A DNA stretch of 64,000 bases from an uncultured Alphaproteobacteria bacterium (lineage in GTDB: Bacteria; Pseudomonadota; Alphaproteobacteria; Rhizobiales; Beijerinckiaceae), in NCBI GenBank assembly GCA_963715715.1, contig OY970269.1, positions 1,688,797 through 1,752,796 of the forward strand. The letters run 5' to 3'. Of this stretch, positions 59,676-63,866 are shown in pieces; positions within the stretch are counted from its first letter, which is position 1, and each line of letters starts with the position of its first letter. Under the pieces are notes generated by a model, which searched no databases, was not told the origin of the DNA, and was given only the letters and a program-made list of their open reading frames with translations. The translations under genes were made by a program, and so were the position numbers.

Positions 59676-61787
59676 ATGCATGTTCTCGCCGCCGTCGTCG
59701 CCATCTTCTCCGTCGCCACCGCGGTCATCGGCGCGACGCATGAAGACGGGATCATCCTGCTCCTCGCCGCGACCGGCCTGCTGTGCGCCTACACCACCTA
59801 TCAAACGCCGAAAATCTCCAGCTTCCTGCGCATCTTCGCGGCGATCTTCGCGATTGAGACGGTCCTCTTCGGCGTCGTCTTCCTGATTGCGCAGGTCGGC
59901 CTTTGGCCCGCCTCGCTGCAGGATTACGCGCTGCCCGAAAGCCTGCCGCTGACCGTCGCGATCTTCGCCATTCTCGTCTATGCGATCTCCTTCGTCCCCG
60001 TCGTGCGGCAGATGACGCGCATCGGCGACCGCTATTTCGACTTCGCGGGACCGACCACGGCGCGCATCAAGCCCTTGCCGTCCTTCAGCATCGACGAGCG
60101 CGTGCTCGCGATCGCGATGGTCGTCTTCCTCGTCGTCGTCAATCAGGCGCAGGTCGGCATGCAGCTTCGGCTGTCCTTCTTCTCGCGCGACTGGTTCAAC
60201 GCGATCCAGAACAAGGATCAGGCGACATTTTGGTCGCAATTGTTCGCTGTCTTCATCCCATGGGCGTTCATCTATATCTGCTCGGCGATTCTCGAATTCA
60301 TCATCGCCTCGACCCTGATCATCCGCTGGCGGCGCTGGCTGACCGAGGACTACGTCGGCCGCTGGCTCGATCGCCACACGCACTACCGGATGTCGCTCGG
60401 CGGCGGCGCCGACAACCCCGACCAGCGCATCTCCGAGGACGTCAACCGCTTCATCAACGGCGGCGAAACCGGCGGCTACGGCATTTACTCTTTTTCGATC
60501 CTGCTCATCTCGACGTTGAGTTCGCTGGTGTCGTTCTCAATTCTGCTGTGGGTGCTCTCGGCCAATTTCACCCTGCCCTATACGACGATCGCCTTCCCCG
60601 GCTTCCTGTTCTGGGTCGCGCTGATCTACGCCGGCGTCGGCACCTGGGTCACCCATCTCATCGGCGGTTCGCTGGTTCAGCTCTCCTTCACGCGGCAGCG
60701 CTATGAGGCCGACTTCCGTTTCTCGCTGGCGCGCTTACGCGAATACGCCGAGCAGGTCGCGCTGCTGAAGGGCGAGAATTCGGAAAAACATTCGCTGCGC
60801 GAGCGCTTCGCCGCCATCATCGGAAATTATTTCCAGATCGTCGCCGTGCGCAAAAACCTGATCGGCTTCACCTCCTTCTACGGACAGCTGAGCCCGATCA
60901 TTCCCTATATCGTCGCGGCGCCGTTTTACTTCGCCGGCAAGATCACCCTCGGCGTGATGACGCAGACCGCGCGCGCCTTCGGCAGCGTCAACGAAGCGCT
61001 GACCTTCTTCGTCAATTATTACGTCTCGCTCGCCGATTTCAAAGCCGTGCTCGATCGCCTCACCTCCTTCGATTCCTCGATCGAGGCGGCGCAGAAGCCC
61101 GCCGAAGCCGCGGCGTCCGCCGCCGCGGCGGACGCCGGCGCGCACGAGCATATCGGCCTCGAAACCGTGACGGTGCGCCTGCCCGACGGGCGCGTCATCC
61201 TCAAGGATGCGACGCTGCGCCTCGCCGCGCGGGAATCGACGCTGGTCAGCGGCCCCTCCGGCTCCGGCAAATCGACCCTGCTTCGCACCATCTCCGGCAT
61301 CTGGCCGTTCGGCGACGGCGCCGTCGCCAAGCCCGCCGACGCGAGCGTGATGCTGCTGCCGCAAAAGCCTTATATTCCGATCGGCGCTCTCATCGCCGCC
61401 GTCACCTATCCGGCCCCGCCCGAGACCTATGGCGAAGACGCCGTGCGCGCCGCCCTTCGCTCTGCGAACCTGCCCGACCTCGTCGACCAGCTGCATGTCG
61501 AGGACAATTGGGGACAGCGCCTTTCGGGCGGCGAAACGCAGCGCCTCGCCATCGCCCGCGCATTGCTGGCGAAGCCCGACTGGCTGTTTCTCGACGAGGC
61601 GACGACGGCGCTCGACGAAGCCATGGAGGCGAAAATCTACGGCGTTCTGTTCACCGAACTGCACGGGACGACGATCGTCTCGATCGGCCATCGCTCGAGC
61701 CTGCTCGATATCCACCAGCGTCACATCGAGCTGCAGCCGGACGGCGCCGGCGGTTCGAAAATCTCAGAGAAGACGGTCGTCGCTTGA
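59676..61787 (+). CDS. YddA/ABCD family ABC transporter permease-ATPase with extended membrane N-terminus
   Basis: DNPDQRISED, EADFRFSLAR, GPSGSGKST, LSGGETQR, LFLDEAT, SIGHR all intact. Confidence 0.88.
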   Translation: MHVLAAVVAIFSVATAVIGATHEDGIILLLAATGLLCAYTTYQTPKISSFLRIFAAIFAIETVLFGVVFLIAQVGLWPASLQDYALPESLPLTVAIFAILVYAISFVPVVRQMTRIGDRYFDFAGPTTARIKPLPSFSIDERVLAIAMVVFLVVVNQAQVGMQLRLSFFSRDWFNAIQNKDQATFWSQLFAVFIPWAFIYICSAILEFIIASTLIIRWRRWLTEDYVGRWLDRHTHYRMSLGGGADNPDQRISEDVNRFINGGETGGYGIYSFSILLISTLSSLVSFSILLWVLSANFTLPYTTIAFPGFLFWVALIYAGVGTWVTHLIGGSLVQLSFTRQRYEADFRFSLARLREYAEQVALLKGENSEKHSLRERFAAIIGNYFQIVAVRKNLIGFTSFYGQLSPIIPYIVAAPFYFAGKITLGVMTQTARAFGSVNEALTFFVNYYVSLADFKAVLDRLTSFDSSIEAAQKPAEAAASAAAADAGAHEHIGLETVTVRLPDGRVILKDATLRLAARESTLVSGPSGSGKSTLLRTISGIWPFGDGAVAKPADASVMLLPQKPYIPIGALIAAVTYPAPPETYGEDAVRAALRSANLPDLVDQLHVEDNWGQRLSGGETQRLAIARALLAKPDWLFLDEATTALDEAMEAKIYGVLFTELHGTTIVSIGHRSSLLDIHQRHIELQPDGAGGSKISEKTVVA

Positions 61788-61846: not shown

Positions 61847-62515
61847 ATGGCGCTCGGCCCATCGCTGCTCGATTTTCTCGCAAGCGAAGAGGGAAGCGAG
61901 CTTCGCGCGCGCTTTTCGGAACGGACGCTCGGCAAGGGCGCGCTGTTTCGCAACGAGGAGGGGCGCGACCGCGTGCTTGTCGTCCGCTCGGGCCGGGTGC
62001 GGGTCTATCTTTCAACGCCGGAGCGCGAACTCAGCCTGTCCTATCTCGGCCCGGACGATATTTTCAGCACCCATACGCGGGCGCATCTCGCCGCGGTCGA
62101 GCCGACGGCGCTGCTGCTCGCCGACCGTTCGGCGCTTGAGCGCGACCTCGGCCGCTACCCGGCGCTGCGCGCCGCCATTATCCGCGTGCTCGCCCGCATG
62201 CTGGCCCAGACGATGACGGTGATCGAGGACCTCGCCTTCCACGACGTGCGCGGCCGCATCGCGCGCTATCTGCTGCGCTACGCCGGCCGCAACGGCGCTC
62301 CGATCCAGGCGGGCGGGCTCATTCGCGTCGATCTCAATATGGAGGAGATCGCCGCCCTTCTCGGCGCGACGCGGCAGACGGCGTCGACGGAATTCAACGC
62401 GTTGATCCGCGCCGGCGTCATCGAGCGGCGCGACCGCGGACGCTTCGCCCTGCTCGATCCGAAGCGCCTTCAGGCGATCGCCGGCATCGAAAATGATCAG
62501 CTGTCGGCTGGCTGA
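61847..62515 (+). CDS. cooA: CO-sensing heme transcription factor CooA (Crp/Fnr family)
   Basis: 222 aa; IFSTHT (His76 at the heme-ligand position), IEDLAFHDVRGRIA C-helix, EEIAALLGATRQTAST HTH, each matching CooA. Confidence 0.8.
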   Translation: MALGPSLLDFLASEEGSELRARFSERTLGKGALFRNEEGRDRVLVVRSGRVRVYLSTPERELSLSYLGPDDIFSTHTRAHLAAVEPTALLLADRSALERDLGRYPALRAAIIRVLARMLAQTMTVIEDLAFHDVRGRIARYLLRYAGRNGAPIQAGGLIRVDLNMEEIAALLGATRQTASTEFNALIRAGVIERRDRGRFALLDPKRLQAIAGIENDQLSAG

Positions 62516-62517
62516 CA
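62502..62517. promoter_or_regulatory. CooA binding box upstream of cowN
   Basis: TGTCG-GCTGGC-TGACA = TGTC(A/G)-N6-(C/T)GACA; centred about 30 nt upstream of TAAACC (62539-62544). Confidence 0.75.
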
Positions 62518-62568
62518 GACGCGCCGCGCGGCCCCGCCTAAACCCATGGCGACCACCCGGAGGGCGCG

Positions 62569-62841
62569 ATGGGCAAATTCGACCGCTATGTGAGTTTCAA
62601 GAACGCTGACTGGCAAGGCGGATCGGATCGCGTCATGGCCGGACTGAAAGCCCATATCGAGGCCGGCGACAGCGCATTCTGGCCCTATTTCCAGCGCCAG
62701 AGGGAGCTCGCCCACGCGCGCGGGCTCGATGATTTGCGCGTCCTGCACAATTTCCTGCCAACGCTGCGCGAGCTGCTTGAAGAGCTCGGCGACGCGGCGA
62801 CCCTCGCCCTTCTCGAAGATCTCGAAGAGACGTGTATGTGA
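62569..62841 (+). CDS. cowN: N2-fixation sustaining protein CowN (CO protection of nitrogenase)
   Basis: 90 aa; DRYVSF, FW.YF and C-terminal [10 protein letters not shown]; RBS GGAGGG; directly downstream of cooA. Confidence 0.8.
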
Positions 62842-62926: not shown

Positions 62927-63715
62927 TCACAACGCCTTCGCGCCAGCCTCCTCCAGGATCGCCGATAGCGCCCCCGGACCCACCTTCACCGTGCCCGCGA
63001 AGGGATGGTCGATGGCGACGATGACGAGCAGGCCTGAGAAAATCATGGCGCAGAGCGCGCCAGCCATCACCATTTGCGCGCGAATATTTTGCGTGCCAAA
63101 AAAGAAGGTGAAGGCGACGGTGAGGGCGGCGCCGCCAAACAGCACGCACCAAATGACGCCGGGAACGATGCCGGACGCCAGCACGAGCCTGCCGCGGCGC
63201 GCCTGCGTCACCTGGTCGAGCTGGTAGAGAACCTCTGTCAACAGCGCCGCGCCGCGCGCGTCGGAAGGCCTGTAGGTCAACACTGCGTCATAGACGCCAT
63301 CGAGGGCGCGGGTCACGGCGAGGCTGGCCCGACCGCGCTCCATTGCCGGCCACTCCTCATTGATCGCAGCGTTGAGGTAGGAGGTCATCGCCGTGCTAAG
63401 CGCCGCGCCCGGCTCGCCTCCGATCCCTTCGGCGAGCCGATAGATCGTCGCGGCCGCGCCCGCCTCCTGCGCGACGCTCTTGTCGGCGTCGTTGAATTTC
63501 TCCCAGACGACGATCACGGCGAAAGCGAGCAGCACCGCGTAGAGAACGCCGACCGTCGCAAATTTGAAGCCGGCGACCTCATTGTTGGTCTTCAGCCTGT
63601 CAAGCGCCACGAACCGGCGCACGAGAACCGGTCCGCTCATCGCGACCAGCACAGGCAAAACGACAAGAAGGAGGGCGGACAGCCACAGCGGCCGAGTGGT
63701 CAGGAAAAAGATCAT
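62927..63715 (-). CDS. DUF4239 / bestrophin-like membrane protein
   Basis: NNEVAGFKFATVGVLYAVLLAF.VI.VWE, IVAIDHPFAG.VKV motifs. Confidence 0.78.
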   Translation of the reverse strand: MIFFLTTRPLWLSALLLVVLPVLVAMSGPVLVRRFVALDRLKTNNEVAGFKFATVGVLYAVLLAFAVIVVWEKFNDADKSVAQEAGAAATIYRLAEGIGGEPGAALSTAMTSYLNAAINEEWPAMERGRASLAVTRALDGVYDAVLTYRPSDARGAALLTEVLYQLDQVTQARRGRLVLASGIVPGVIWCVLFGGAALTVAFTFFFGTQNIRAQMVMAGALCAMIFSGLLVIVAIDHPFAGTVKVGPGALSAILEEAGAKAL

Positions 63716-63762
63716 GTTGGCTAAGCTCTCCCCACGCGAGCCCCCCTGTTTTGAAATCCGCG

Positions 63763-63866
63763 CTGAAGCATTTCCCATCGAATCGGAAAACAGCTTCCAT
63801 TTTATTTTTTATCGCATTTTCTTCATGCGAACCGGCGAGGCGTCCGCTTCGCCCGAAATTCTCTAG
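63763..63866. repeat. TAGAG-type palindromic intergenic repeat, related variant (copy 4)
   Basis: On the minus strand starts at a CTAG stop: CTAGAGAATTTCGGGCGAAG...CCGGTTCGCATGAAGAAAATGCG, then an imperfect AGC.TTTTCC hairpin. Confidence 0.55.

Follow-up and report, generated by a model that had tools for sequence, protein, structure and literature searches.

The locus described here raises the question of whether a gene for a Crp/Fnr family regulator and the small open reading frame that follows it form a self-contained CO-sensing cassette for the protection of nitrogenase, as a preliminary description had proposed. The window, that is, the whole stretch of DNA that was analysed (64 kb), corresponds to C1:1688797-1752796 of a single-contig genome of 3.69 Mb with 64% GC. 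The analysis points to a CO-response module of two genes, of a type already known, in a Methylocella-like nitrogen fixer, in which CooA, on sensing CO, switches on cowN, and CowN protects nitrogenase. We consider this reading very probable, and, as far as can be judged from sequence, the proposed combination of CooA, its box and cowN, set apart from nif and coo genes, fits everything that was tested.

The source organism belongs to the same genus as the genome G064, whose CooA is 94% identical to that of Methylocella silvestris BL2; on the GTDB delimitation the genus is therefore Methylocella, in agreement with the earlier guess of a soil or peat diazotroph. The genome contains two soluble di-iron monooxygenase clusters, and pmoA was not detected in it by a search that had no positive control.

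Identity of the regulator and of the adjoining gene

The first gene of the pair, cooA (61847-62515, forward strand), encodes a CooA-type Crp/Fnr activator of 222 residues, presumed to be a heme-based CO sensor. The product matches Pfam HTH_Crp_2 and, weakly, cNMP_binding. NCBIfam has no CooA model, and the best matches of the protein in that collection all lie far under the cut-offs. Comparison with all PDB sequences gives CooA of R. rubrum (1FT9, E-value 1.4e-38) and of C. hydrogenoformans (2FMY, 2.5e-35) as the top matches, with the best non-CooA member of the Crp family at 1e-18. The protein is identified as a CooA by its Crp/Fnr fold, together with this greater closeness to CooA than to other Crp proteins.

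The hallmarks originally read from the translation (FSTH, IEDL.FHD and RQT.ST) are borne out by alignment with 1FT9. FSTH falls on FCMH of R. rubrum, placing Ser74 at the position of Cys75 and His76 at that of His77; IEDLAFHD falls on IEDLMFHD, and RQTAST on RQTTST. Leu115 and Leu119 correspond to Leu116 and Leu120 of R. rubrum, and R176, Q177 and S180 of the F-helix are present. The histidine at the His77 position, the equivalents of Leu116 and Leu120, and the R, Q and S of the recognition helix are invariant in all 15 aligned members of the CooA clade. The two proteins are thus alike in regulator family, in the heme-ligand histidine and in the RQTxST recognition helix; they differ in that the Cys75/Pro2 ligand set of R. 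rubrum is absent here.

The serine in place of Cys75, also reported correctly in the preliminary description, is no peculiarity of this protein. The position is occupied by Ser or Thr in 15 of the 15 aligned clade members, so that a serine such as Ser74 in place of the Cys75 ferric-state ligand, the redox switch of R. rubrum CooA, is the norm for cowN-linked CooA. CooA of C. hydrogenoformans is not known to show a Cys75-type ligand switch, and Cys75 is not a family-wide requirement; its loss therefore does not exclude membership of the CooA family. The distal heme ligand, which CO displaces, is Pro2 in R. rubrum CooA and the N-terminal amine in C. hydrogenoformans CooA. The present protein begins MALGPS, with no Pro2 and a proline at position 5; the N-termini of the clade vary, a Pro-Ser pair at positions 3-6 being common. 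The N-terminal amine of Ala2 could act as the distal ligand here. The equivalents of Trp110 and Gly117 are both alanine.

An alternative start codon for cooA, TTG at 61784, lies upstream, and automated gene calls use the upstream extension (243 residues). The ATG at 61847 is the likely start, since conservation with an 89%-identical relative (P0002) begins at MALGPS and the upstream extension differs in both length and sequence. Homologues of this CooA, at 40-89% identity, come almost entirely from diazotrophs, the named hosts being R. palustris, Methylocella, Beijerinckia, Methyloferula, Gluconacetobacter, Novosphingobium, Thalassospira, Azovibrio, Azotobacter and Pseudomonadaceae.

The gene preceding cooA (59676..61787, forward strand) encodes a fused ABC transporter with an SbmA/BacA-like membrane domain and an ATPase (Pfam ABC_membrane_2, SbmA_BacA and ABC_tran). 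Only 59 nt separate its end from cooA, and the two may therefore be co-transcribed. The transporter gene is the conserved 5' neighbour of cooA in the Methylocella lineage (M. silvestris BL2, L033, L034, G064 and G008, the last being a remnant site); it is context, with no functional part in the cooA-cowN module.

The second gene (62569-62841, forward strand) encodes a protein of 90 residues that had been taken for CowN, the N2-fixation-sustaining protein. Profile searches uphold this: the product scores 107.8 bits against the NCBIfam equivalog model NF033689 (cut-off 48) and 83.8 bits against Pfam PF20543 (cut-off 27), and is identified as CowN on these matches. CowN proteins are recognised by a fully conserved C-terminal Glu and by a Cys or Met as the last or last but one residue, and Glu87 is essential in CowN of G. 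diazotrophicus (PMC10765410). The C-terminus here is LEETCM, in which Glu86 corresponds to Glu87 of G. diazotrophicus and Cys89-Met90 are the last two residues; Glu86 and Cys89 are invariant in the CowN alignment. A Shine-Dalgarno sequence, GGAGGG (62559..62564, forward strand), can be read 4 nt before the ATG.

A predicted operator over the end of cooA

The predicted CooA operator, TGTCGGCTGGCTGACA (reverse complement TGTCA-N6-CGACA), occupies 62502-62517. It is a perfect box and, as had been noticed, lies over the end of cooA, with the stop codon TGA (62513-62515) forming part of the right half-site. The box is the sole match to TGTCR-N6-YGACA in the 64-kb window, where about 0.16 are expected, so that one arising by chance in the 100 nt ahead of cowN has odds of about 2.5e-4. 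Its centre, 62509.5, is 29.5 nt from TAAACC (62539-62544) within the -10-like element CTAAACC (62538..62544, forward strand) of a predicted CooA-dependent sigma-70 promoter of cowN; this is class-II geometry, as originally claimed. The operator centre is predicted to lie at about -41.5, with cowN transcription starting near 62551. In R. rubrum, CooA operators of the same TGTCA-N6-CGACA type stand at class-II-like positions, -43.5 and -38.5. The -10 element agrees with TATAAT at only three of six positions, and a generic E. coli-type scan found nothing at the cowN promoter region, which is expected of an activator-dependent promoter in an alphaproteobacterium of 64% GC.

Ten homologue loci were examined, and at eight of them cowN follows cooA in the same orientation: G064, BL2, Beijerinckia, R. 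palustris, Thalassospira, Azovibrio, together with two Methylocella relatives known from metagenomic or MAG sequence. The two genes are divergent in G. azotocaptans, in contrast to the tandem pair here, whose operator is set within the last part of cooA; no cowN is called at the Azotobacter locus. The eight tandem loci and the one in this window together gave a nine-locus promoter comparison across Beijerinckiaceae, R. palustris, Thalassospira and Azovibrio. The box, followed by GAC, is centred 59.5-68.5 nt before the cowN ATG in all nine (59.5 nt here). A CTAnAnn or TAnnnn element follows 21-22 nt past the box in eight of them, Thalassospira having only a poor version. The flanking GAC and the GC-NN-GC spacer of the box are conserved beyond the needs of a TGT-N10-ACA dyad, and the remaining bases between box and -10 element have diverged between loci.

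The cooA stop codon falls inside the box at six loci, namely those of this genome, L033, G064, BL2, Beijerinckia indica and R. palustris BisB18. One Methylocella MAG has a cooA frame that reads on across the box and ends within the -10 element of cowN; in Thalassospira and Azovibrio the frame ends ahead of the box. The relative L033, whose CooA is 89% identical, has both genes, an identical box and the same -10 offset. The overlap of the operator with the 3' end of cooA is thus real and conserved across a Rhizobiales clade, and it falls in a C-terminal tail of CooA that is non-conserved in the clade alignment. The placement might be functional as well as compact, in that CooA with CO bound, seated at the end of its own coding sequence, could block or terminate cooA transcription, which would give negative autoregulation and would insulate cowN from read-through without CO; we regard this as unlikely.

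The closest described arrangement is that of M. silvestris BL2 (CP001280.1:877447-884121), in which the genes for the ABC transporter, CooA (66% identity), CowN (78%), Trypco1 and HisG are syntenic with those found here. Its box, TGTCAGCTAGCTGACA, likewise overlaps the cooA stop, and TAAAAC lies 22 nt past the box. The two differ in that the BL2 stop codon is a TAG in the box spacer, whereas here it is the TGA of the right half-site, and in that a bestrophin-like gene (62927-63778, reverse strand) is inserted here between cowN and Trypco1.

Perfect TGTCR-N6-YGACA sites number 16 in the whole genome, where base composition predicts about 10. Four of the 16 fall within the nif region and probably serve NifA (TGT-N10-ACA). 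The extended motif GTCR-N6-YGACRGAC occurs once in the 3.69-Mb genome, at cowN. A large CooA regulon was rejected on these grounds.

Nitrogenase, CO oxidation and the history of the pair

Absence of nitrogenase from the genome had been named as a finding that would refute the proposal. The genome does encode nitrogenase: nifH scores 456 bits (cut-off 394) at C1:1945328-1946149, and nifD followed by nifK-, nifE- and nifN-sized open reading frames adjoins it. In the assembly a single inserted T at the nifH 3' end fuses the nifH frame to nifD; if this T is real and not a sequencing error, nitrogenase could be impaired. The cassette had been placed outside any nif or coo cluster, and this is correct: nifH lies 193 kb away on its downstream side and coxL 1.34 Mb away on its upstream side.

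The accompanying statement that there is no CO dehydrogenase gene nearby holds locally only. No nif or CO-dehydrogenase gene is found in the region around cooA and cowN, and the Ni-CODH gene cooS was absent when the genome was searched. Reportedly, R. capsulatus is without the Ni-CODH coo operon, and its CooA serves nitrogenase protection only. The statement does not extend to the present genome as a whole, which carries a form-I aerobic coxMSL-DE cluster (coxL, 1525 bits; cut-off 991). A gene for an MHYT-LytTR regulator lies immediately upstream of this cluster. The cox region has no perfect CooA box; two sites with one mismatch, located within coxL and immediately before the regulator gene respectively, are at about chance level. 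Control of the aerobic cox genes by CooA was rejected for these reasons. With no CooA box at cox, which has a separate MHYT-LytTR regulator, CooA has no evident target besides cowN, and the organism appears to have two separate CO circuits.

The description of the cassette as portable also holds in part. Across families the pair stands in unrelated contexts, never adjoining nif or coo genes at the loci compared, which fits a self-contained module. Within the Methylocella lineage, by contrast, it occupies one fixed site, in the order HU-like gene, ABC transporter (SbmA/BacA-like), cooA, cowN, a variable slot, Trypco1 and hisG. G008 has lost cooA together with the 5' half of cowN by deletion, which leaves the last ~39 codons of cowN directly after the ABC transporter gene. 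The genus was sampled in 41 genomes, 17 of them nifH-positive; cowN is intact in two of the 17 (this genome and G064), and one more, G008, holds the deletion remnant. The shared synteny, the remnant and the patchy retention together indicate that the pair is ancestral at this site and has been repeatedly lost. A recent horizontal gain in this genome was rejected, because the synteny is the same in BL2, G064, L033, L034 and G008, with the G008 remnant at the same site. As 15 of the 17 nifH-positive genomes are without an intact cowN, the pair is dispensable for diazotrophy as such.

Among 400 genomes sampled from the class, CowN was found in only four others. At none of these four alphaproteobacterial loci (L017-L020) does a cooA lie within 1.5 kb. 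A CooA search of the genome contigs returned a single Crp match, at 29% identity, which was rejected as spurious.

A proposed mechanism, its alternatives and its meaning

A cooA-cowN module for CO protection is of a kind already described and is not new. CowN of G. diazotrophicus has been shown biochemically to sustain the turnover of Mo-nitrogenase under CO (PMC8047169), and CO- and CooA-dependent expression of cowN is attributed there to Kerby & Roberts 2011 and Hoffmann et al. 2014. The precedent originally invoked, activation of cowN by CooA on CO in R. capsulatus, agrees with what that paper cites from Hoffmann et al. 2014. The algH-cooA-cowN locus of G. diazotrophicus has a CooA UAS, tGTCg-N6-tGACa, 60 bp upstream of cowN (PMC8047169). 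It resembles the present locus in pairing CooA with CowN, in the distance of this element (59.5 nt to the box centre here) and in the overlap of the operator with the NifA pattern TGT-N10-ACA; unlike it, the present locus has no algH. In Rubrivivax, cooA adjoins cowN even in strains without coo genes (PMC4257681). R. gelatinosus and R. benzoatilyticus are thus similar to the present genome in this adjacency, found also without anaerobic coo genes, and in the presence of aerobic cox genes, although they are Betaproteobacteria. The wiring is reversed in R. rubrum, where CooA drives the CO-oxidising cooFSCTJ and cooMKLXUH genes and RcoM, next to cowN, controls the latter (PMC4257681).

By analogy with these homologues, the regulator would bind heme and depend on CO. 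CooA would be a dimer of the Crp family with its heme presumably ligated by His76. It would probably be produced constitutively in small amounts, perhaps from transcripts that run on from the ABC transporter gene ahead of it. Upon binding of CO to the ferrous heme, CooA would bind the dyad TGTCGGCTGGCTGACA across the last codons and stop of cooA. From this class-II position, about 41.5 nt upstream of the predicted start, it would recruit sigma-70 RNA polymerase to the weak -10 element CTAAACC, and cowN would be transcribed. CowN would then bind the MoFe protein of the Mo-nitrogenase encoded 193 kb away, allowing N2 reduction to continue under CO.

The same dyad could be read chiefly as a NifA UAS, with cowN driven by NifA and sigma-54 according to nitrogen status and CooA a co-activator at most. 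Since TGTCGGCTGGCTGACA also matches TGT-N10-ACA, NifA could take part at cowN. The four nif-region copies of the perfect motif point the same way, as does the account in PMC8047169, which reports that NifA co-regulates cowN in R. capsulatus and proposes the same for G. diazotrophicus. However, no sigma-54 element (GG-N10-GC, -24/-12) was seen by eye upstream of cowN, including the interval between box and cowN, or upstream of cooA, in this genome, G064 or R. palustris BisB18. In this the locus appears to differ from that of R. capsulatus, whose cowN, on the same published account, is also NifA-dependent; control of cowN by CooA alone is predicted here because no such element was seen. Moreover, a box centre 59.5 nt from the ATG is too close, NifA sites typically lying ~100 nt or more away; the conserved element past the box is of the sigma-70 -10 type and stands at class-II distance, and the conservation of the GAC and of the spacer exceeds what the NifA pattern requires. 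A predominantly NifA-driven cowN is, on this evidence, distinctly unlikely.

It is very improbable that the regulator, though of the CooA clade, senses a signal such as NO, O2 or redox state, which would then induce cowN. The case for this lies in the altered residues described above (Ser for Cys75, Ala for the Trp110 and Gly117 equivalents, no Pro2) and in the literature examined, in which no spectroscopically characterised member of the aerobic-diazotroph subclade was found. The invariance of the heme-ligand histidine and of the C-helix leucine pair argues against it. So does the identity of the regulated gene, since the sole known role of CowN is CO protection (PMC8047169), and so does the R. 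capsulatus homologue, which according to the same paper's citation of Hoffmann et al. 2014 activates cowN on CO. That the cassette is a decaying, non-functional relic has next to no likelihood. Such decay has occurred in the sister species G008, and most genomes of the genus are without the pair; in this genome, however, both reading frames are intact, all key residues are present and the box is perfect, and the 89%-identical relative L033 retains both genes, the box and the -10 offset. CO-dependent activation of cowN by CooA is the reading that we retain.

What is mildly new in this locus is the conserved position of the operator within the end of cooA, the constant distance from box to -10 element over the nine loci, and the patchy occurrence of cowN among nif-positive Methylocella. 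Its value lies in annotation, where a 'Crp/Fnr family regulator' and a small open reading frame become a CO-sensing nitrogenase-protection pair, with little significance beyond this. The architecture of box, 21-22 nt and CTAnAnn is usable for recognising CooA-dependent cowN promoters in other genomes. The retention of cowN in so few of the nifH-positive genomes of the genus, with one remnant, suggests that protection of nitrogenase against CO is an accessory, habitat-dependent trait, which may be of interest to ecologists of peat and soil diazotrophs and of facultative methanotrophs.

Variants of the cooA-cowN cassette among relatives

The arrangement in which the regulator gene runs into its own operator is found in its extreme form in L034, a locus of a Methylocella sp. 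MAG (JBGAHM010000015.1), where the cooA frame traverses the whole CooA box and ends at a TAA stop codon inside CTAAAG, the -10-like element in the cowN promoter (L034:3657-3696). In the sister species G008, a deletion remnant of the cassette is located at L009:1498-1752 (G008:C1, about 3776898-3777014, minus strand). The cowN gene is reduced to its last ~39 codons (…LHNFRPTLRGILEDLRDDATLKLLEELEETCM), which lie directly 3' of the ABC transporter orthologue. The cassette's cooA has been lost, although nifH is still present in G008.

The space separating cowN from the Trypco1/hisG genes is a slot of variable content. In the window it holds a gene for a bestrophin-like (PF14023) membrane protein (62927-63778, minus strand), while L033, a Methylocella-lineage locus, has a redoxin gene there and L034 a YscW/META gene. 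In M. silvestris BL2 the slot contains no gene, and G008 lacks the slot.

Among the 400 genomes of the class, the only other cowN matches are at four loci, L017-L020 (genomes G112, G367, G454 and G250). Neither cooA nor a CooA box is found within 1.5 kb of cowN at any of the four, and their cowN genes are presumably controlled by a different regulator, for example RcoM.

The nif region

Four perfect TGTCR-N6-YGACA dyads cluster around the nif genes of the genome under study, G000, all of them within 20 kb (C1:1936798, 1947154, 1954817 and 1955971). The same four also match the NifA upstream activating sequence TGT-N10-ACA, demonstrating that the bare 10-base CooA consensus is unable to separate CooA sites from NifA sites.

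Outside the window, nifH and nifD appear as a single open frame of 816 aa (G000:C1:1943711-1946161, minus strand); in 16 other genomes of the genus, nifH has an open frame of 264-378 aa. Comparison with two same-genus genomes reveals one additional T in G000 (gagTtcg vs gaa-tcg), in a GAGTTCG stretch within C1:1945311-1945327, ~17 codons upstream of the usual nifH stop, so that the NifH tail is frameshifted and the frame continues into nifD. An indel error of long-read sequencing probably accounts for this T, as the completeness of G000 is only 91% despite its single contig.

Monooxygenases and aerobic CO dehydrogenase

G000 carries two alpha/beta pairs of soluble di-iron monooxygenases (PF02332; G000:C1:2500180-2502670 and 2824323-2827986), as is the case in Methylocella-type facultative methanotrophs. 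An in-frame TAG is present in one match and may represent another assembly error or a pseudogene. pmoA was not detected in G000 in a search run without a positive control.

The genome also carries a form-I aerobic CO dehydrogenase cluster comprising coxM, coxS, coxL, coxD and coxE (L028, G000:C1:400000-416000). Directly upstream of it is the gene for a 458-aa MHYT-LytTR regulator (L028 11551-12927, minus strand), and together they form a putative second, CooA-independent CO-responsive circuit in this organism.
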